A DNA stretch of 25,643 bases from an uncultured Planctomycetia bacterium (GCA_964388645.1 CAYMBK010000031.1:1-25643); one strand, 5' to 3'. Positions 9,383 through 17,737 are shown, counted from the stretch's first letter. Numbers and translations: made by a program. The notes: generated by a model not told the origin, from the letters alone.

Positions 9383-12300
9383 ATGGTGAGATATTTTTTG
9401 GTGAATTACAGGGCATGTGTTAGGGCCATTGCTATCTGCGTTGCCGTGAGCTTTTTCTGCCAGAACGTCGTTTTGGCCGCGGGTACGGATATTCCGATGC
9501 CGGGCAATCTTCTTCCTTCTTCCGGGTTCAATTTCATAACGGGAACATCCGTTCCCGGTGAGTTCGAAGTGACGGCTTTTCTGAAATACTTGCAACATCG
9601 GATAGGGGTGTTACGGAAAAAATATCCGAAACGGTTTTTAACGCCCGAACTCATCAGGGATCTTCTGTCCGAACAATTCACTCAGGGTATTCCGGGATTT
9701 GACCCTCAAAAAATGTACCCACAGGGCAACGAACTGGTCATGCCCCTTTGGGATCGTGAGATACGCATATCCCTGCCCGATGGACGAACAAGGATCGATG
9801 GCGAGAGCGAACTGACCGTCTCGGAAGCGTCCCCGGCGAAAGACGAGCACGTCATGCGCAGCGGTCCTGGAAGCGGCCCGGACCACTTTAGGGGGGAGCC
9901 AAAGGATCGTGGTCCCCGAGAACGAATAAGGATGTACACCCATTTTACGGATGATCAGCTTATTGAAGAGATCGTAAAGACAAGGGATGAGTTTCTTGCC
10001 CGGAAAGACGAAGAGGGCTACTCACGAGAGACAGGCAAGACCCCGAATTTTAACCTTGCCGCGTTGAAAAAAACCAATCTCCGTCTTTACGACTATCTGC
10101 TCAACCACGACAAGAAGAATCTACTGCACCAGATACCATTTTTGCCGGGCAAGGAAGATCTCGAGACGGATATCGGCGGCGGTATGGAAGATCTCCCCGC
10201 CACATCTTCGGGCGCGGAGTGGTCTGCCTCTTTTGTCGAAGAAATATTTGACGGTGGATTTCTGACAGCAACAGAAAAAACGATCTTAACGCTTTTTTTC
10301 GGTCTGGGCGGGCAATGGTCAGCAAAAGCCCCGGTAATAGCCCGTGAACTCAACCTTACACGACAACGGATAGATCAGCTCAGAGAAAAGGCAATTGACA
10401 AGATAAGAAGGTGGATCGCCACGAGAGATCTGGCCATTTTCGGGTTTTCGCCGGGCGAAGCGGCTTGGATATTGTCCTTTTATCCGACCATGGATGGATT
10501 CGCTCAAAGAATATCCCGCGTGAGGAGGATGCTCAGGGTTTCTGATGATGCCGCTTCGTCTTTTACCCCGGAAGAAAGGAAAAACCTGGCCAGATCCGTT
10601 TTGGAAGAACCGTGGCCACCGGAGGCGAGGTCGTCTGAAAGAACGCGAAGGCCGAACGGCAGGGGCAGGTCCGCTTCCGCGCGTATCACGCCACTCGTCG
10701 CGATAACGGGCATCGCTATCGGCGCGGCTATCTTCCTGCCGGCGATATCCGCCGCCGCGCGAGGGCTTTATCATTATCTTGCATCCTCAGGTATCTCCGG
10801 GTTTTTGCCCGGAGGAGGTGAAGTGACGCTCATTTTAGGGTTGCCTCTTCTTGGATCCGTTTTTTCCGCGCGGGGCCCAGGCAACGAAGCGAGAAAAATT
10901 GAAGAGGCTCTGTCCGCCGTGCGCGATATGACCGCGGGGAGGGACGAATATGATCCCGCGGAAGGACGCAATCCAAAAGAACGGAAGATACTGGAGGTGT
11001 ACGGCGAGCTTCAGAGAGAGAAAGGAACCGGCTATGTACCTGATCTCACAGAATTGGCCGAACGGGCGGAGATCGGCACATCGACACTTAAGTCCCGTTT
11101 GTTCAGGATGAACCTGGACAGGAACGACAGGTATCTGAAAGCTCTTGTCTACAGAGGATCTGACCTTCCTCAAGTTGGAGGCAAAAGGGGTTACGCTTCA
11201 CTGGGCTGGATGGGAGAGGATCTGGGCTTTGTCTATTCTCCGTTCCTGCATGCCCCTGTACTTGAAGAACTTTTCAAGGTCGGTATACCGCTCGCTATTT
11301 TTAATATCCTGAGCTTTATTACTCCGGAACTGCCGGCTCTTAATCTTTCCGTTTTTGTATCCACGTCTGTGATCTTGGCTTTTGTTTTTCTTGCCGCGCA
11401 CCTTCTGAACGAGGATGGGCCTTACAGCGTAGACAGGCCGTTCTCCCTGGCGTCCGCGCAAATAAGAGCCGTGTTTTTACGGCACCCTCTCATGGCCGCT
11501 AAAAAAGTACATAAGACATGGCATTACATAAAAGTGACGAGGGGTACCCATTATCTGGCTTTCAACATCCTTGCGGCGCCGGCCTACTCGGCGGCATTCG
11601 GAATTTTGCTGTCACTGCCTTTTGTGGTGTTTCTGGGGCCTTCGGTTTTCAATATCATTCCGTTATTCCTGAGCATGCTTCTGCACTATTTTCAGAACCG
11701 CCGCATAAAAATGATAAACGAAAAAGAGAGGAGGACGATAAGGTATGCCTCTCTCCCGGGATGGGTTAAAATGGTCTTTCCTCATGGTAAAGAAGCGATC
11801 AGGACGATCTTCTCGAAAAATACAACATTCGGAACAACCGCTCATCCGCGCAGTCCTCAAAGGCTTGCCCGGTGGTCACCTTTTGAGGACGGAGTTCCGA
11901 TGGCATCGGATAGTTCCAGCCCCGACGGTATAAGGCCGCTTGGTGGCCCGGAAGAAGAAGCCGCGCGCGCCGCGTCCGGGAAAAAGCGATCTCTGGAAGA
12001 GTTGATCGCATCAGGCGATATCGCGAAGGGGACTTCGGAATACGTGTCTCCCGCGACAGCCAGGCAGACAATGGAAAAAGCGGGACAAGTACTCACGCGG
12101 GAAGAGGAACAAACTCTTTTTCGGGCACTTCATTCCGCGTGGAGGCCTGAGGACAAGCCGGTCAAACGCGCTGTTGTAGATATGATCGTCATGAAAAACC
12201 AGGGTTTGGTGTGGTCGGCCGTCAGAAAATTTGTGTATACCGAAGACAAGAATGTCATAGCCGATGCCGTTCAGGACGGGAACCTGGGTCTTCTGGAAGC

Positions 12301-15300
12301 CATACTGCGTTTCGGTTATGAGTTCAATCATAAGTTCTCGACTTACGCCTCGCACTGGATAAAAAAGTACATCAAGGAAGGATCGAAAATCATTACCGAA
12401 AGCATCCATATCCCGAGAAAGGAGGTGGAGAGATCGGACCGCTTGAAAAAATTTGTGGTATCGTTGCAAAATACGCTGGGCAGAGTTCCATGCGTCGATG
12501 AAATAGCGGAAAAGGCCGGCCTGGCAGTTAGTGAAGTTGTACGGCTTTTAGGAGTAAGGGCCATTCAGCCCGATTCTCTGTATGTGCCTGTAAAAAAGAC
12601 GCTGGGGTCGGGGAAGAAAACAGTTCACCTCGGAGACCTGATCGCCGGTTCCGGCGGTGTTCACTATCAGGAAGATATTTCAAGCAAAGAGGTACTTTCG
12701 TATCTTTTTGCCAGTCTGACATTCACACAGCGCGTTGTTGTCAAGATGAGAAACGGCATAGGCACAGTGAGGGACAAGAGGTACTCAGTTCGAGAGATAG
12801 GGAGCCTGATCGGCTGTAGCGGCGCGAATGTACACCTTATTGAAAAGGAGGCCCTAAGAGTTTTAGGTAGAGCTGTCTCCAGGAAGAAGGACAGCGAGGT
12901 CACGACCGAAGGGGTCGATAATACCGATGTTCATATTGCCGAGATATTACAGATCAGCCCTCTGAAACAAGGAGATCTCTTCGAGAAAGAGTTCCGGCGT
13001 ATCAGAGAGGAAAGGTTAAAGGATGAGAGGGCATCGGACGGAACAGATGACAGCGGGCTCACACTGGAGGAAGAGACACAAGCCCTTTCTTCCGTAAGCC
13101 ATGATCCTAAACGTCCGGTCAGCGTAAGAGGAACAATAGCGCGGGTGTTCGGAAAGGACGTGAAGCCGGGCGTTGTGGACATAGGTTCGCTGCACGGATC
13201 GTTCGTGAAGGATTTTCTGGACATGCACGGAGATGTGGTCGGCGAGATGATAGGGATAGACACGGTATACGACAGGAGCAGGATAACTGCCGATATTGCC
13301 GACGCCATGCATGAGGAAGGGATCTGGTCTGAATATGAACGTGCCTACTACGCCGGGGAAGAAAGCCCCCTTATGAGCGTGGACGAGGTAATGGGGGACC
13401 CGTCCAGAAAAGGAACTTTCGGCGTGGCCACCATTAACAAACCGCCGGGCGGAATGGATGATTTTAAGGCTATGGTAGATGAAGCCGTTTATTTGGGAGC
13501 GCGCCTGATATTTCTCGACGCTAACGCTCGAGATATTCAGGAAGAGGGTTTGGAATATCTTCGGAGCCTGGGATATGACATTGTTGAGATGCCTGGCAAG
13601 CCCGAAGATTACCCCGCCACGGAGCAGATGAGAGTGGTTGTGAGAGAAAGGTTCTTTGTTTGCGAAAGAAAGGTAGAGCCCGAGGAAATAAACCCCGAAG
13701 AGGTCCGCGTTGAGGGTCTGCCCGTAGTGTGGTCCGGCGGCAAAGACGGCTCCGGACGAGGGGTGGCCGGCGTCCAGATCGATGTGGGAAGTATTTCCGG
13801 GAATACCGTGAGAATGGCCGGCATTGTCGAAGCTTTGGCCAGTCTGGGGCGGAAAGCCCCCGGGCTTGTAATATTCCCGGAACAGATAGACGAAGACTAC
13901 ATGAGCTGGACGGATGAGATCGCGGGAAAAAGGAGAGAGATACTCAGACAGAAGGCCATAGCCACAGGTATAGCCATAGGTTACGGTATTGAGCATTTGC
14001 CCGGAGGGGACTATGAGAGAGGGAGTGTTTTCTACGAGATAGTAAAGCCCGTGGGATTGGGATCGGAACTGACCCGGTTCAGAAAATATGACTACGTGAA
14101 GGAGAACCGCCTGGTCGAGATAAACGGTACAAAGATCGCCGTTCTTATATGCGGAGAGGCCGAAGCCCTGCTGGCGCCGCGGTCGCGCGGCATCAGAACA
14201 GACAGTGATATCAGCCGGGCTGACCTGCTCATTGTCCCGTCCACAACGGATATGTGGTCCGCGAAGTTCTGGCCTGGCGCTTTGTTCGAAAAATACGGTG
14301 TTCCGGCAGCTTTTATCAACCGGGCCGACATAACGAACGCGGGCAACCCCTGGCACGACGGGTTTACGCCTTCACGATACCGGGAACCGCCTGATGAGGC
14401 AACTATTTTGAGCGCCGGAGAACAGATAATGATTTTAGCCCCCGGGTGTGTTTCGGACAATGTAACGGGAGATAAGGAAGCTATGGCCTCGGATCGGAGC
14501 GAACGCGAGGCGATAGAACGCGTTTCCTGCGCGCTGCGCAGCGTCCAACACAGCGGTTTAAGCGCCTTTGATATTGACGGTATGGCACACAGAGCGGTAA
14601 GCGCCATGGCCGAGGTGATCCTCTCGACGGAAAAGGACTTTCCGGTAATGTCAGGGAGGATGAAGGATCTTGCCGACGGCCTCGTGGAACGATCAAAGGC
14701 CTTTCGAGTAGAAAGAACAAGTTTTGACTCCGCTTCCGAAGACGGAGCATTGACCGCGGAGGCCGCCGAAGGATATGCCAGGGCGATAGCCGAATATGGA
14801 CAGGCCGTGCGGGATATCAGGACTGAGGCGGAAAAGCTTGTCTCGGATCCCGTAGAGCGGACCTATCCCGGTATCGAAGGGATAATGGGTTTATACCGAG
14901 AAGTATGGAAGGAGATGGATCGTCTTTCAGAAGCGGTCAAAAGCCGTTCTGAGCTTGCTTCCGGTACGGGGTCTACGGATCTGATCCCCGTATCTGAGGT
15001 GATCCGCCTGGTTGTAAGTGGAAGGCCGTACGTTACGATGGAGAACGAACTCGCGCCGGACGTCCTGCTCGAGGGTAACCGTTTGTCGTTTGCCGGAGCC
15101 GTGGCGAACATCGTCGACAATGCGGTGTTCTTTGCCGCGAAACGGCGGACAAACGACGGGACCCCGGCCTTTGTCACGATCACCCTGGCCGAGGAAAAAG
15201 GGAATATCAGGATAGATATAACCGATACAGGCGGAGGGATCTCACATGATCTGCTAGTAGCGGATTATGTAATGCAAAGGCCGAGATTTTTCAACCTTGA

Positions 15301-17737
15301 TGTTTCGCGCAGGGAAGGGGGAACGGGCCTTGGTGCCACCGAGGCCTGGTACGCCGTAAAGGATATGGAAGGCAGTATCAACGTCAGTTCCGCGCCCGGC
15401 GAGGGCACTACTTTCACTATCGGCGTGCCGATCGCCACGTCTATTCCGACCGAGGTTAAGGCGAAGTTCCATAAACCCGGCGGGCCGGGCCTGCCGCAAC
15501 TGGCGAAACTTCCGCCCGAGGCTGAAGCGACGTTCCGCAATTCCGGTGACACAATACCTGATTCGACGAAAGAGATAAGTAATGTGTTCCCGGAACTTCC
15601 AACACCCGATGCGGCAAGGGGTTCGGATGAAGTGAAACGTTCTCGTAGTACGATAGAGGATCTAAAACCGGAACGGACCGTGCGGATTTTAGATATAGGG
15701 AGCGGTACCGGTGCGGAGAGTCGCTGGGGGAGTGGTGCGTCGCATAGAGAAATCAAAGAGGTCGTCCGGAGAAGAACGGCAAAAGACGACGAAGAAGTAA
15801 GAGTTGAGCTTATTGGAATAGATAAAGACGCTGAAGAAGTTCGTCGAGGGAAAGCCCTTGGCTTTGATATCAGGGAGATGGACGCGCGAAAAAGCACCGG
15901 TTTCAAGGAAAAAAGTTTTGACCTTATAACCCGTTATAACCCTTCCACTACAAAAGATATCTTAGATATTCTGCCGGAAGTAAAAAGAGTTTTAAAGCCG
16001 GAAGGTGAATTTTGGGTTGCTCCCTGGCTTGAGGACTATGACGAATTTCTGAATGTATGGAGGAGGGATCCGAAATACCTACAGCACTATGTGGATGCGT
16101 TGGAGGCGAATGGTTTTTCAGCGGAAGTCATAGAAGAACATCGGCCTGATATGCCACCCGTACTTATTGTCGCCAGGCTGATACCGCACGTCCCGCTCGA
16201 GGTTCGCGCGAAAGCCCGGCGCGAAGGCGGTTTGCGCCTCGCAAAAATACCGCCCGAAGGAGATCAGGCATTCGAGCAGGAACAGGCAAAAGCGGTGATG
16301 ACGGAAGGCGCAAAGCCGCTTTTGCGCGATATCAAGACACAAAACAGAGGCGAGATCTATCCTCAATGCACCGCTTATTCGCATATAACCGCGGAGAAAT
16401 TCAGACAAATGGTCGAATGCTTGGCAGGCGGAAAAATAGGCGATGAAGAAGAAAAAGAGCTGGTAAGATTTGACAAAGTTTTAGAAGAACTGGAGCTTGT
16501 CAGGCAAAGGCTTAATGGAGGGCATTACAACAGATTATATCACTCGGTATCATGTTTCGAAGCCTCGAAAGAGACGATCGATGTCCTCAGCAGGAACGGT
16601 TTTTCATCCGTGCAATTGATAAGACGAAAATTCATCGACGACAAAATACCAAGCAAAATTTTCGGACCGGCCAGTGCCTTTTTGTACGGGTCATGGATAG
16701 ACGATGATGGGGATACGTATGCTCATTCATACGTGGTCGCCAGGATCGCCGGGGAGTACTTCGTAATAGACCTGTCGGCCGGACAGTTCCTGACGGAACA
16801 GTTATGGGACTACAAAGACCTCGGAATATTCATTGTTCCGATAAAAGACCTTGATGAGCATTCCTGGCCTTACGCGATGGGCGATGTGTTCCTCAACGAT
16901 AAAGAAGAGGCTCTAGAGCTTGTTAGCGGAGATGAGAAAGCTCTCGAAGCCATTATGAACCCACGGGGAACGGTGCCTGAGGGTGTTATGAGCTACGCGG
17001 CGGAATATTCAAATGAGCGGAATAACACTCCCGGGACACGGGTGCCGGACGATACGGATACCGAGGGCATGGCAGACCATGCCGCGCAGGATGATCCGGT
17101 AACGGAAACGCTTTCGTTGCCTCCTGCGTCGCGGGAACAGCCCGAGATGGAACTTATAAAGGAGCTTATACTAACAAGCGAGATCATCGCATCGGCTTCG
17201 CTCACGGGCGAACCGGTCATAGTGGGTATCGATACTAGCTGGGTGCCGGCCGAGCAGAGAGCTCTCGATTCTTTCGGGGCCATGCTAAGACAGCTCAAGG
17301 GTCTGCCGGCGAAGCTGGGAGCTCACCACATAACCATCTTGACGGCAAGCGATCCGGAGGTCCTGAGCGGGGAAATAGACCGGGTCATCAAAAAAAGAGA
17401 CAAGACTGTGAAAATGTCTAACATACTCCTCATAGGCCAGTTCGACGGTATAGACGGGTCAAAGAACACATCTTATGACAGGTTCAAGACGTCTCCGGAA
17501 GGCGAGAGCGCGTGTTTCGCGCATATTGTTGTTCCTGCGGTCAGTGCCGGAAAACATTATGACGTGGACATGCAGAGTATTCTCAGGCTGGCGCTCGCCG
17601 AACACAGGGCCATTCACCGGCAGGGAGGCAAGAGGTTTTTTTATCTGAATTTACCCGGTGCCGGACAGGACGGGTTAACTGTCAAAGAGCTTCATGATCG
17701 CCATAGAGCCAGGAACTATGCTCTAAAAATGGCCTAA
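9383..17737 (+). CDS. giant 2784-aa multidomain membrane-associated protein (sigma70, MTase, nitrilase-fold, HATPase and transglutaminase-like modules)
   Basis: 8355-nt uninterrupted ORF with GGAGGAG RBS. Signal-like N-terminus (RAIAICVAVSFFCQNVVLA-AG), hydrophobic TM block, and the domain motifs listed as separate features. Confidence 0.95.
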   Translation: MVRYFLVNYRACVRAIAICVAVSFFCQNVVLAAGTDIPMPGNLLPSSGFNFITGTSVPGEFEVTAFLKYLQHRIGVLRKKYPKRFLTPELIRDLLSEQFTQGIPGFDPQKMYPQGNELVMPLWDREIRISLPDGRTRIDGESELTVSEASPAKDEHVMRSGPGSGPDHFRGEPKDRGPRERIRMYTHFTDDQLIEEIVKTRDEFLARKDEEGYSRETGKTPNFNLAALKKTNLRLYDYLLNHDKKNLLHQIPFLPGKEDLETDIGGGMEDLPATSSGAEWSASFVEEIFDGGFLTATEKTILTLFFGLGGQWSAKAPVIARELNLTRQRIDQLREKAIDKIRRWIATRDLAIFGFSPGEAAWILSFYPTMDGFAQRISRVRRMLRVSDDAASSFTPEERKNLARSVLEEPWPPEARSSERTRRPNGRGRSASARITPLVAITGIAIGAAIFLPAISAAARGLYHYLASSGISGFLPGGGEVTLILGLPLLGSVFSARGPGNEARKIEEALSAVRDMTAGRDEYDPAEGRNPKERKILEVYGELQREKGTGYVPDLTELAERAEIGTSTLKSRLFRMNLDRNDRYLKALVYRGSDLPQVGGKRGYASLGWMGEDLGFVYSPFLHAPVLEELFKVGIPLAIFNILSFITPELPALNLSVFVSTSVILAFVFLAAHLLNEDGPYSVDRPFSLASAQIRAVFLRHPLMAAKKVHKTWHYIKVTRGTHYLAFNILAAPAYSAAFGILLSLPFVVFLGPSVFNIIPLFLSMLLHYFQNRRIKMINEKERRTIRYASLPGWVKMVFPHGKEAIRTIFSKNTTFGTTAHPRSPQRLARWSPFEDGVPMASDSSSPDGIRPLGGPEEEAARAASGKKRSLEELIASGDIAKGTSEYVSPATARQTMEKAGQVLTREEEQTLFRALHSAWRPEDKPVKRAVVDMIVMKNQGLVWSAVRKFVYTEDKNVIADAVQDGNLGLLEAILRFGYEFNHKFSTYASHWIKKYIKEGSKIITESIHIPRKEVERSDRLKKFVVSLQNTLGRVPCVDEIAEKAGLAVSEVVRLLGVRAIQPDSLYVPVKKTLGSGKKTVHLGDLIAGSGGVHYQEDISSKEVLSYLFASLTFTQRVVVKMRNGIGTVRDKRYSVREIGSLIGCSGANVHLIEKEALRVLGRAVSRKKDSEVTTEGVDNTDVHIAEILQISPLKQGDLFEKEFRRIREERLKDERASDGTDDSGLTLEEETQALSSVSHDPKRPVSVRGTIARVFGKDVKPGVVDIGSLHGSFVKDFLDMHGDVVGEMIGIDTVYDRSRITADIADAMHEEGIWSEYERAYYAGEESPLMSVDEVMGDPSRKGTFGVATINKPPGGMDDFKAMVDEAVYLGARLIFLDANARDIQEEGLEYLRSLGYDIVEMPGKPEDYPATEQMRVVVRERFFVCERKVEPEEINPEEVRVEGLPVVWSGGKDGSGRGVAGVQIDVGSISGNTVRMAGIVEALASLGRKAPGLVIFPEQIDEDYMSWTDEIAGKRREILRQKAIATGIAIGYGIEHLPGGDYERGSVFYEIVKPVGLGSELTRFRKYDYVKENRLVEINGTKIAVLICGEAEALLAPRSRGIRTDSDISRADLLIVPSTTDMWSAKFWPGALFEKYGVPAAFINRADITNAGNPWHDGFTPSRYREPPDEATILSAGEQIMILAPGCVSDNVTGDKEAMASDRSEREAIERVSCALRSVQHSGLSAFDIDGMAHRAVSAMAEVILSTEKDFPVMSGRMKDLADGLVERSKAFRVERTSFDSASEDGALTAEAAEGYARAIAEYGQAVRDIRTEAEKLVSDPVERTYPGIEGIMGLYREVWKEMDRLSEAVKSRSELASGTGSTDLIPVSEVIRLVVSGRPYVTMENELAPDVLLEGNRLSFAGAVANIVDNAVFFAAKRRTNDGTPAFVTITLAEEKGNIRIDITDTGGGISHDLLVADYVMQRPRFFNLDVSRREGGTGLGATEAWYAVKDMEGSINVSSAPGEGTTFTIGVPIATSIPTEVKAKFHKPGGPGLPQLAKLPPEAEATFRNSGDTIPDSTKEISNVFPELPTPDAARGSDEVKRSRSTIEDLKPERTVRILDIGSGTGAESRWGSGASHREIKEVVRRRTAKDDEEVRVELIGIDKDAEEVRRGKALGFDIREMDARKSTGFKEKSFDLITRYNPSTTKDILDILPEVKRVLKPEGEFWVAPWLEDYDEFLNVWRRDPKYLQHYVDALEANGFSAEVIEEHRPDMPPVLIVARLIPHVPLEVRAKARREGGLRLAKIPPEGDQAFEQEQAKAVMTEGAKPLLRDIKTQNRGEIYPQCTAYSHITAEKFRQMVECLAGGKIGDEEEKELVRFDKVLEELELVRQRLNGGHYNRLYHSVSCFEASKETIDVLSRNGFSSVQLIRRKFIDDKIPSKIFGPASAFLYGSWIDDDGDTYAHSYVVARIAGEYFVIDLSAGQFLTEQLWDYKDLGIFIVPIKDLDEHSWPYAMGDVFLNDKEEALELVSGDEKALEAIMNPRGTVPEGVMSYAAEYSNERNNTPGTRVPDDTDTEGMADHAAQDDPVTETLSLPPASREQPEMELIKELILTSEIIASASLTGEPVIVGIDTSWVPAEQRALDSFGAMLRQLKGLPAKLGAHHITILTASDPEVLSGEIDRVIKKRDKTVKMSNILLIGQFDGIDGSKNTSYDRFKTSPEGESACFAHIVVPAVSAGKHYDVDMQSILRLALAEHRAIHRQGGKRFFYLNLPGAGQDGLTVKELHDRHRARNYALKMA
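10262..10410 (+). other. domain in giant protein: isolated sigma70 region 4 HTH
   Basis: LTATEKTILTLFFGL...IARELNLTRQRIDQLREKAIDKIR matches the L..RE..VL.LRFGL...EIG..L.LTRERVRQI...AL.KLR pattern. Confidence 0.8.
12050..12870 (+). other. domain in giant protein: RpoD/RpoS-like sigma70 core (regions 1.2, 2, 3, 4)
   Basis: LTREEEQTL (1.2); KNQGLVWSAVRKF...DAVQDGNLGLLEAILRF...KFSTYASHWIKKYI (2); IHIP...LGRVPCVDEIAEKAG (3); LTFTQRVVVKMRNGI...YSVREIGSLIG...IEKEALRVL (4). Confidence 0.9.
13150..13640 (+). other. domain in giant protein: divergent class I SAM-methyltransferase-like fold
   Basis: VVDIGSLHG (motif I variant), MIGID (motif II), later GTFGVATINKP. Confidence 0.5.
13763..14440 (+). other. 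domain in giant protein: nitrilase/carbon-nitrogen hydrolase fold
   Basis: VAGVQ...LVIFPE1500...FRK1568Y...GTKIAVLIC1590GE...ADLLIVPS; the E-K-C triad is present. Confidence 0.8.
14483..15430 (+). other. domain in giant protein: histidine-kinase-like helical region plus HATPase_c
   Basis: N box ANIVDNA, G1 DTGGGI, F box RFF, G2 GTGLG, terminal GSINVSSAPGEGTTFTI. Possible H-box GMAH at 14579-14590. Confidence 0.85.
15680..16175 (+). other. domain in giant protein: class I SAM-dependent methyltransferase
   Basis: VRILDIGSGTG, LIGID, EMDAR...FKEKSFDLIT, LPEVKRVLKPEG. Confidence 0.88.
16500..16900 (+). other. domain in giant protein: transglutaminase/papain-like Cys-His-Asp domain
   Basis: SC2391FEAS..TIDVLSRNG, AH2448SYVV, VID2463LSAGQF, with the order and spacing typical of this fold. 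Confidence 0.6.

Follow-up and report, generated by a model that had tools for sequence, protein, structure and literature searches.

How does an enzyme domain come to lie inside a long multi-enzyme protein, and does a peptide repeated on its two sides tell how? The question is raised by one ORF, P0001, in the window of 25,643 nucleotides that was analysed here. The sequence-only reading of this DNA saw an AT-rich methyltransferase bracketed by two copies of a linker and proposed that it had been inserted from a foreign source by a general mechanism of cassette shuffling. The analysis supports the insertion of a module in P0001 but gives no support to a general mechanism of shuffling by linkers. 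The elements concerned are as follows.

9383-17737, plus strand: P0001, multi-enzyme ORF of 2,784 aa, with Pfam matches to sigma-70 regions 4, 2 and 3, HATPase_c and Methyltransf_11
14495-15430, plus strand: kinase-like module, aa 1705-2016, with C-terminal HATPase_c; 46% identity to a paralogue that the same genome carries on contig C220
15431-17062, plus strand: extra block of 544 aa, aa 2017-2560, where the paralogue has 9 residues
15443-15535, plus strand: linker copy L1, aa 2021-2051, with no predicted structure (pLDDT 33-40; the model was built on seven sequences, and low confidence does not prove disorder)
15515-16168, plus strand: the 218-codon window of the ORF with the lowest third-codon-position GC (GC3, 0.422), from codon 2045
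15536-15604, plus strand: spacer 1, aa 2052-2074, predicted to be disordered; the low-GC3 stretch starts here
15605-16186, plus strand: class I SAM methyltransferase cassette, aa 2075-2268, matching the standalone 175-aa protein P0006 end to end; GC3 0.43
16190-16273, plus strand: linker copy L2, aa 2270-2297, with a short helix predicted at aa 2272-2281 at low confidence
16364-16966, plus strand: Cys-His (papain-like) module, aa 2328-2528, with C2391 and H2448 invariant and homologues in other long ORFs
17063-17731, plus strand: conserved tail domain, aa 2561-2783, 44% identity to the tail of the C220 paralogue

The methyltransferase cassette and the extra block

Comparison with the C220 paralogue delimits the block. 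P0001 aa 1705-2016 align with paralogue residues 872-1197, and aa 2561-2783 with residues 1207-1431; between kinase module and tail there are 544 residues in P0001 versus 9 in the paralogue. The block consists, in this order, of L1, a spacer, the methyltransferase, L2, a spacer, the papain-like module and an acidic spacer. L1 adjoins the C-terminal end of the kinase ATPase and L2 that of the methyltransferase, each within a few residues: HATPase_c (54.6 bits, above the Pfam cut-off) ends at aa 2017, homology to the paralogue at aa 2016, and L1 begins at aa 2021; P0006 ends opposite aa 2266-2268, and L2 begins at aa 2270. Contigs of two metagenome DNA runs match the window without a difference and span both linker junctions, thus excluding an assembly chimera. 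None of these contigs has a joint that skips the cassette; a gap in their cover near 15950-16040 carries no weight. Among the sequencing runs listed as carrying this DNA there is none of RNA. The direction, insertion in P0001 rather than loss from the paralogue, is an inference, since a loss would leave the same pattern, and more distant relatives lend little support to it (tail match E 0.059). No P0001 orthologue is found in three genomes of the same genus.

The cassette belongs to the class I SAM-dependent methyltransferases. Methyltransf_11 scores 31.5 bits at aa 2141-2211 (curated cut-off 21.2) and 26.2 bits, likewise above the cut-off, in the Pfam results for the whole polypeptide; between L1 and L2 all Pfam families are of methyltransferases. 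In the structure model the core, of a Rossmann-like alpha/beta fold, alternates strands and helices with pLDDT of 80-96, and its top Foldseek matches are all class I methyltransferases with probability 1.0, covering rRNA, quinone, protein and lipid methyltransferases. The glycine-rich SAM loop, D-x-G-x-G, is invariant in the alignment. The cassette is rare, since a set of 1.84 billion representatives yields relatives in no more than six other clusters, and its contexts are independent. The standalone P0006 is a real gene, flanked on four contigs by folP-like and formyltransferase genes; the cassette is also found in unrelated contexts in two other long proteins, and in one incomplete protein, and the linker accompanies it in none of these. 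A search of 400 other genomes of the phylum finds it in none at E <= 1e-8. Other contents of the segment were considered and rejected, namely an antisense gene (a minus-strand ORF of 213 aa lies in the cassette and has no Pfam family) and an RNA element (no Rfam match). Sites resembling promoters or terminators are no more frequent in the cassette than expected.

The base composition adds to this picture at the third codon position. The hand-counted GC values of the sequence-only reading are reproduced exactly: 65.0% at 15421-15540 and 66.7% at 16201-16260 in the linkers, 36.7% at 15781-15840 and 31.7% at 15901-15960 in the methyltransferase. The 60-nt windows among these were picked by hand. 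The whole segment between the linkers has a GC of 47.7%, which is at the 39th percentile of same-size genome windows (genome 48.2%), and total GC was rejected as a sign of a foreign cassette. The high GC of the linkers is mainly due to their Pro, Gly, Ala, Glu and Val codons, which are GC-rich at the first position (GC1 0.71 and 0.82), and their GC3, 0.71 in L1 and 0.61 in L2, is host-like. Hence, the word "AT-rich" fails for total GC but survives for GC3, which is 0.427 over aa 2052-2269 (spacer and methyltransferase) versus 0.575 in the ORF outside the extra block. No other part of the ORF has a significant trough (scan-corrected P 0.0014 for this one), and at most 3% of genome windows have a GC3 as low; the ORF windows with GC3 below 0.46 all begin at codons 2019-2087. 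The GC of the relatives' loci, 40-54%, decides nothing. The earlier claim of an inserted methyltransferase cassette is thus upheld by the residues missing in the paralogue, the match to a complete standalone gene, the absence from the other phylum genomes and the unique GC3 trough.

The linker repeat

Both linker peptides lie in frame 1 of the ORF, and their positions were reproduced. Gapped local alignment gives 14 identical residues in 28 columns with a BLOSUM62 score of 66; the 15 identities counted earlier are obtained with the gap placement used there. Both copies are rich in the same few residues (Pro, Gly, Ala, Lys, Glu), and BLASTP self-comparison of the protein returns the identity match alone, both of which would suit a similarity arisen by chance or as a by-product of composition; detection of the pair took Smith-Waterman alignment and tblastn. 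However, a score of at least 66 is reached by none of 200 comparisons of L1 with shuffles of the whole protein (maxima of 30 +/- 4.3) and by none of 20,000 composition-preserving shuffles of the two linkers (18.9 +/- 4.1, top 50). When 60-aa windows of P0001 are compared all against all, the L1/L2 pair ranks first (66; runner-up 49), and the null maximum of 45.3 +/- 3.7, with a top value of 62, does not reach 66 in any of 300 runs. Run against the whole genome, tblastn finds the pair at E 0.001. Codons are identical at 9 of the 14 identical residues versus 5.1 expected (P 0.03), and this excess argues for common descent at the DNA level. A chance or compositional origin is therefore hardly credible, being refuted at the level reached by the shuffle, tblastn and codon tests.

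Substitution rates over the 28 codons (dS about 1.0, dN about 0.5, dN/dS about 0.5) show the duplication to be old and its constraint loose. At the DNA level the copies, of 84-93 nt, are 58% identical, and a flanking duplication of this kind corresponds to no standard insertion mechanism. The conserved positions are clustered in a hydrophobic-Pro-x-Glu...Phe unit present four times, in an invariant Gly-Gly and in LAK; four copies of the 9-residue unit compare with 0.35 expected for a pattern that was picked post hoc. Such clustering may point to a function beyond tethering. As for a double-glycine leader or a ubiquitin-like Gly-Gly cleavage site, the residues preceding Gly-Gly do not seem to fit the leader pattern.

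The proposal that the linker is a general device for cassette shuffling finds no support. An occurrence nowhere else is among the outcomes that the sequence-only reading had itself named as refuting, and it is what the searches give. In the profile scan that the sequence-only reading had asked for, L1 and L2 together give at best 0.005 against 400 phylum genomes, a partial match at chance level for 400 genomes. Beyond P0001, the next best match in its own genome has E 0.15 and contains a stop codon (tblastn). Among long proteins (1,531-4,872 aa) of a database of 5.8 billion clusters the linker matches itself only. Four methyltransferase homologues, the kinase modules of six relatives and seven other long ORFs with a Cys-His homologue were also compared, and the flanks of these modules hold no credible linker. 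Within P0001 the motif is absent from the remaining module junctions, and a remnant at the junction of the C220 paralogue is not significant (P 0.3-0.6). The core P-x-E-V-R/K has three matches versus 0.1 expected, one of them at a junction near aa 1438; a third linker copy there was rejected, the surrounding peptide being unlike L1 and L2 (P > 0.5). A linker private to one gene cannot be a recombination or processing signal of the whole phylum. As far as sequence comparison goes, L1 and L2 thus appear to be a local scar or tether rather than a general shuffling signal.

Origin of the cassette and its linkers

We suggest, with a probability of about one half, that L1 and L2 are old, diverged copies of a linker private to this gene, probably disordered, which surround a captured cassette of whole-gene size, were copied at its splicing and serve as flexible tethers. 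The methyltransferase would have been captured separately, as a whole gene with its own third-position base composition, and spliced into or beside an existing linker. The linker would most likely have been copied at this step, and both copies would now act as flexible tethers. If a single event produced both, the dS of about 1 between the copies sits uneasily with a GC3 trough that is still off the level of the host.

The same arrangement might have been brought in ready-made. The whole block, or a unit of linker plus module, would then stem from a donor gene outside the sampled ones, where this linker is the standard junction, and would have been either imported from that gene or duplicated inside it, so that L1 with the methyltransferase and L2 with the Cys-His module are two successive units and the linkers their leaders. 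The block opens four residues before L1, which may make L1 part of the insert rather than of the kinase module, and each linker is followed by a spacer and then a module. Duplication of units does occur in these genes, as in one genome of the same family the kinase modules are in tandem triplication. However, no donor is found, the linker being absent both from the 400 phylum genomes and from the database proteins of 1,531-4,872 aa, and its GC3 is host-like, unlike that of the methyltransferase. Native linkers around a foreign cassette are favoured because of this difference, and we consider the import unlikely.

That the linkers are functional motifs in themselves, either recognition or cleavage sites freeing the methyltransferase from a polyprotein or docking sites for a partner, is doubtful. 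The clustering of conserved positions, the invariant Gly-Gly and the (post hoc) 9-residue unit would fit such a role, as would dN/dS of about 0.5 at dS of about 1 and the start of both linkers exactly at module ends. The cutter might be the neighbouring Cys-His module or another protease. The former follows L2, has an invariant Cys and His, and gives weak fold matches to papain/transglutaminase-type thiol enzymes; but these do not reach significance (best E 0.02, low pLDDT) and include deamidases and acetyltransferases as well as proteases. Homologues of this module lie within other long ORFs, of 1,980 to 59,091 aa, but in the seven other long ORFs compared no such peptide adjoins them. Only two copies of the linker exist, in a single gene, and the other junctions of P0001 lack it. 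The narrower proposal, that L1 and L2 are cis-acting processing sites and that a cut at Gly-Gly or at the hydrophobic-Pro-x-Glu units, which might be made by the adjacent Cys-His module, releases a free methyltransferase, is rather improbable. If it were true, each giant gene of these bacteria would carry a private cleavage code.

Known long proteins and insertion systems

The source genome, of an uncultured bacterium, is Omnitrophota-like by its sequence matches. The SHMT encoded in the window has its single best match among named Omnitrophota MAGs (61-71% identity), MAGs of other phyla scoring similarly, and searches at the phylum level yield giant ORFs, the longest of 59,091 aa. For Omnitrophota, West-Roberts et al. 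(2023, bioRxiv 10.1101/2023.11.21.568195) describe long and giant multi-enzyme proteins of the 'Archaeovorin' type, and a second preprint (bioRxiv 10.64898/2026.06.07.730766) 'multi-enzyme metabolic clusters'. P0001 likewise strings several unrelated enzyme domains in one polypeptide (Pfam), including PF08241 and PF02518, which also stand together in co-occurrence module 1 of the latter preprint. With its 2,784 aa it falls far short of the giants stressed in these papers. A word search of both papers finds no mention of linkers, shuffling, fusion or recombination, therefore a duplicated linker around one cassette is a detail that they leave undescribed. One of the two names the incorporation of new domains into such proteins as an open question.

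For this question the locus offers one concrete, datable case, with four marks together: a spliced enzyme of gene size, an empty site in the paralogue, a trough in codon composition and a duplicated linker at both joints. General domain shuffling and fusion share with P0001 a complete enzyme of standalone-gene size, set in frame between flexible linkers and found elsewhere in varied neighbourhoods. A recognisable duplicated linker of 28-31 residues, however, is not a standard fusion signature. Target-site duplications of transposons are similar in being direct repeats around an insert of deviating composition, whereas the P0001 repeats are longer (84-93 nt), 58% identical and in frame, and the insert is a coding module. 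Transposon insertion was rejected: the repeats are not near-identical, Pfam finds no mobility gene, neither a transposase nor terminal inverted repeats were seen in the segment that the linkers enclose, and the repeat scan shows no inverted pair where the cassette ends. Should recent cassettes in such genes lie between linker copies as a rule, these copies could mark module gain for tracing.

Other parts of P0001 were compared as well. The RSExR-type motif (Arg-Ser/Ala/Pro-Glu-hydrophobic-Arg/Lys) has no occurrence in P0001, its paralogue, P0003 or P0005, and neither head nor tail of P0001 is similar to P0003 (BLASTP). The tail has a weak match in a relative of the same family (E 0.059) and matches of 28-34% identity in genomes of the same genus, and a copy of the head (aa 1-140) with 50% identity lies on contig C79.

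The repeated linker and its range

P0001, a multi-enzyme protein, carries two in-frame copies of a linker, L1 and L2, which flank a methyltransferase cassette (aa 2075-2268).

Features of P0001 and its own-genome relatives (aa numbers refer to P0001)
9383-17737, +: P0001 ORF, 8,355 nt, 2,784 aa
aa 294-342: sigma-70 region 4 (Pfam)
aa 936-1072: sigma-70 regions 2 and 3 (Pfam)
aa 1905-2017: HATPase_c (Pfam)
aa 2021-2051 (15443-15535): linker copy L1, in frame
aa 2141-2211: Methyltransf_11 (Pfam)
aa 2270-2297 (16190-16273): linker copy L2, in frame
aa 2328-2528 (16364-16966): Cys-His module, with homologues in 9 genomes of the 400 from the phylum
G000 C220:2812-4491, -: paralogue segment, only kinase module and tail in common with P0001
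G000 C79:1093-1512, -: head copy, 50% identical to the N-terminal 140 residues of P0001

The similarity of the two linkers, claimed in the sequence-only reading, is borne out. Their alignment scores 66, with 14 identities in 28 columns and one 3-residue gap, and this score is never reached in three null models: L1 against shuffled P0001 (30 +/- 4.3; 0/200), shuffles preserving each linker peptide's own composition (18.9 +/- 4.1, highest 50; 0/20,000) and all-against-all comparison of 60-residue windows over the whole of P0001 (null maximum 45.3 +/- 3.7, highest 62; 0/300). Hence, the similarity depends on residue order and is the strongest internal repeat of P0001, the next best window pair scoring 49. 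Chance resemblance is excluded at the level of the shuffle tests. The two copies are 58% identical in DNA and use the same codon at 9 of the 14 conserved residues (5.1 expected, P 0.03), with dN about 0.5 and dS about 1.0 (Nei-Gojobori, noisy over 28 codons). These values point to an old duplication under loose constraint at most.

A 9-residue unit (hydrophobic-Pro-x-Glu, then four residues, then Phe or Ala) occurs twice in each linker; four copies in the linkers and one near aa 57 compare with 0.35 expected for a pattern that was set post hoc, after seeing the data. The core of both linkers, P-x-E-V-R/K, occurs a third time at 13694-13708 (aa 1438-1442), directly before the nitrilase-like module (3 matches in P0001 versus 0.1 expected). 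The peptide around this junction near aa 1438 has no significant similarity to the linkers. A 16-nt inverted repeat (16224-16239 and 16306-16321, 81% complementary, 66 nt apart) covers the end of L2 and the second spacer, and is probably due to chance.

The proposal that the linker is a general shuffling device is not supported, as it is found nowhere else in the own genome, 400 phylum genomes or the long proteins of the database, an outcome named beforehand as speaking against it. A two-copy profile returns only the two copies from the own genome, where the next best tblastn match (E 0.15) contains a stop. The best other profile match among the 400 phylum genomes is partial with E 0.005, about the chance yield of 400 genome searches, and among database proteins of 1,531-4,872 aa only P0001 itself shares words with either linker. 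The linker is also absent at the matching borders of the methyltransferase homologues, the kinase-module relatives and the Cys-His-module relatives, and the junction of the C220 paralogue has no significant similarity to it. P0001 also lacks the RSExR junction motif. Judged from these searches, the linker is private to the P0001 gene.

The extra block and its modules

In the own genome, contig C220 encodes a paralogous ORF that is truncated at its 5' end by the end of the contig and spans at least 1,432 aa. Residues 872-1197 of the paralogue match the kinase module (aa 1705-2016, 46% identity) and residues 1207-1431 match the tail (aa 2561-2783, 44%). The two are separated by 9 residues in this paralogue versus 544 in P0001 (aa 2017-2560, 15431-17062), where the extra block holds, in order, L1, a spacer, the methyltransferase, L2, a spacer, the Cys-His module and an acidic spacer. 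We read this block as a probable insertion, because both extra modules are rare, neither is found in the own family, both sit in unrelated contexts elsewhere and one deviates in GC3. Alternatively, the paralogue may have lost the block by deletion, and more distant relatives lend the insertion weak support (tail match E 0.059). The suggestion of a foreign cassette with linker shuffling is partly right: module insertion is supported, chiefly from the paralogue and not from GC, and a general linker-mediated device is not.

Head and tail paralogues of P0001 are present in the own genome and genus, and the head copy on the short contig C79 may be the head of the C220 gene. The three same-genus genomes contain no P0001 orthologue and give module-level matches only (26-39% identity), hence the gene is either species-specific or evolving very fast. 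Metagenome contigs from two runs, each of a different study, all have the identical sequence and bridge both linker junctions, and a cassette-free form is not seen in them.

In a representative search of 1.84 billion proteins, aa 2015-2305 had relatives in only six further clusters, four of which align well. None of the 400 other phylum genomes sampled gave a match to the methyltransferase subfamily at E <= 1e-8.

Well-aligned relatives of the cassette
P0003: multi-enzyme protein, 3,232 aa, relative at about aa 1105-1270
P0004: incomplete protein, 493 aa
P0005: 1,384-aa protein, relative at aa 149-323
P0006: 175-aa protein, standalone relative

P0006 is a true standalone gene between folP-like and formyltransferase genes on four contigs from different samples, and this conserved order hints at a housekeeping role of the ancestral enzyme. 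Its organism is not close to that of the window, since the two share housekeeping genes at only 46-48% identity. At L030:1455-1982 the 175-aa gene, the closest standalone methyltransferase relative, overlaps the end of the folP-like gene and is followed by the formyltransferase gene.

L2 starts at aa 2270, just past the point where P0006 ends (opposite aa 2266-2268), and L1 starts at aa 2021, just past the end of the HATPase_c match at aa 2017. Hence, each linker begins at the end of a folded module. In a structure model built from a 7-sequence alignment the methyltransferase core has pLDDT of 80-96, L1 has 33-40 without secondary structure, and L2 forms only a short helix of low confidence. 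Foldseek matches group the core with class I SAM methyltransferases and indicate no substrate.

Homologues of the Cys-His module occur in other families of the class, most of them within long ORFs that measure 1,980 to 59,091 aa; among the 400 phylum genomes, those of the own family have none. Cys2391, His2448 and a Gln-Phe pair are invariant among them. In fold searches it gave weak matches, none of them significant (best E 0.02), including the Pasteurella toxin C3 domain (a deamidase), SseI, arylamine acetyltransferases and LapG.

Base composition of the cassette

The four hand-counted GC values of the sequence-only reading are reproduced exactly. The cassette described as AT-rich is not so in total GC, as the sequence enclosed by the linkers is at 47.7%, equal to the genome mean and at the 39th percentile of genome windows of the same size; what stands is a GC3 trough over the spacer and methyltransferase. 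P0001 is itself GC-rich for the genome (52.3% versus 48.2%; GC3 0.56 versus 0.533 for genes). The amino acids of the linkers account for most of their GC spike, through first codon positions (GC1 0.71 in L1 and 0.82 in L2), and their GC3 of 0.71 and 0.61, each from about 30 codons, does not clearly exceed that of P0001.

GC3 of aa 2052-2269 is 0.427 versus 0.575 for P0001 outside the extra block. The lowest 218-codon window begins at codon 2045, all windows with GC3 below 0.46 start within codons 2019-2087, and a minimum as low appears in 0.14% of codon-order permutations. Among long-ORF windows genome-wide (mean 0.535, SD 0.047), 2.9% are as low. The trough is real, moderately unusual and localised to the spacer and methyltransferase; the vanishing of the dip under full analysis, named beforehand as speaking against the cassette, is not observed for GC3. 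GC3 also rises to 0.65 around codons 1440-1657, so that P0001 is compositionally patchy beyond the cassette.

Proposed origin of the block and its setting

The best reading is a local splice event, in which a gene-sized methyltransferase would have entered a modular protein within or next to a flexible linker that was already there, leaving the linker on both sides of the cassette; the direction, insertion, is inferred. It fits because the linkers are host-like and the cassette low in GC3, and because both copies sit at module ends. It is weakened in that flanking duplications of this length (about 90 nt) are not a known product of any standard mechanism, and in that the GC3 trough persists although the two copies are long diverged (dS near 1). 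It is weakened further since the extra block starts 4 residues before L1, so that L1 may belong to the insert. This last point supports the rival reading of two successive linker-plus-module units from an unsampled donor. Unit duplication does occur in these genes, as a same-family genome has three tandem kinase-ATPase modules in one 1,336-aa open frame (L002, G007:C32:11287-15204). The linkers may instead be functional, as processing or docking motifs; the thiol-enzyme-like Cys-His module adjoining L2 is a candidate for the protease.

We consider the locus a new, modest example among an already known kind of protein, whose significance grows if cleavage or recurrent use of private linkers is true. 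PF08241 and PF02518 are combined in long Omnitrophota proteins according to two preprints (West-Roberts et al. 2023, bioRxiv 10.1101/2023.11.21.568195; bioRxiv 10.64898/2026.06.07.730766). A word search of both finds no mention of linkers, shuffling, mosaic, fusion, recombination or the like, and one of the two calls the incorporation of new domains an open question. Our phylum-level searches also returned ORFs with lengths in the tens of thousands of residues.

P0001 contains a whole sigma-70 core (NCBIfam). On either side of its ORF lie unremarkable genes, for an STT3-like transferase, an S41 peptidase and purine synthesis, SHMT among them. The genome was assembled from a metagenome and is fragmented (1.41 Mb, 272 contigs, 48.2% GC, 76% complete). 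SHMT of the window is 61-71% identical to that of MAGs labelled Omnitrophota or Omnitrophica, a set that includes the single best match, and MAGs of other phyla score near these.
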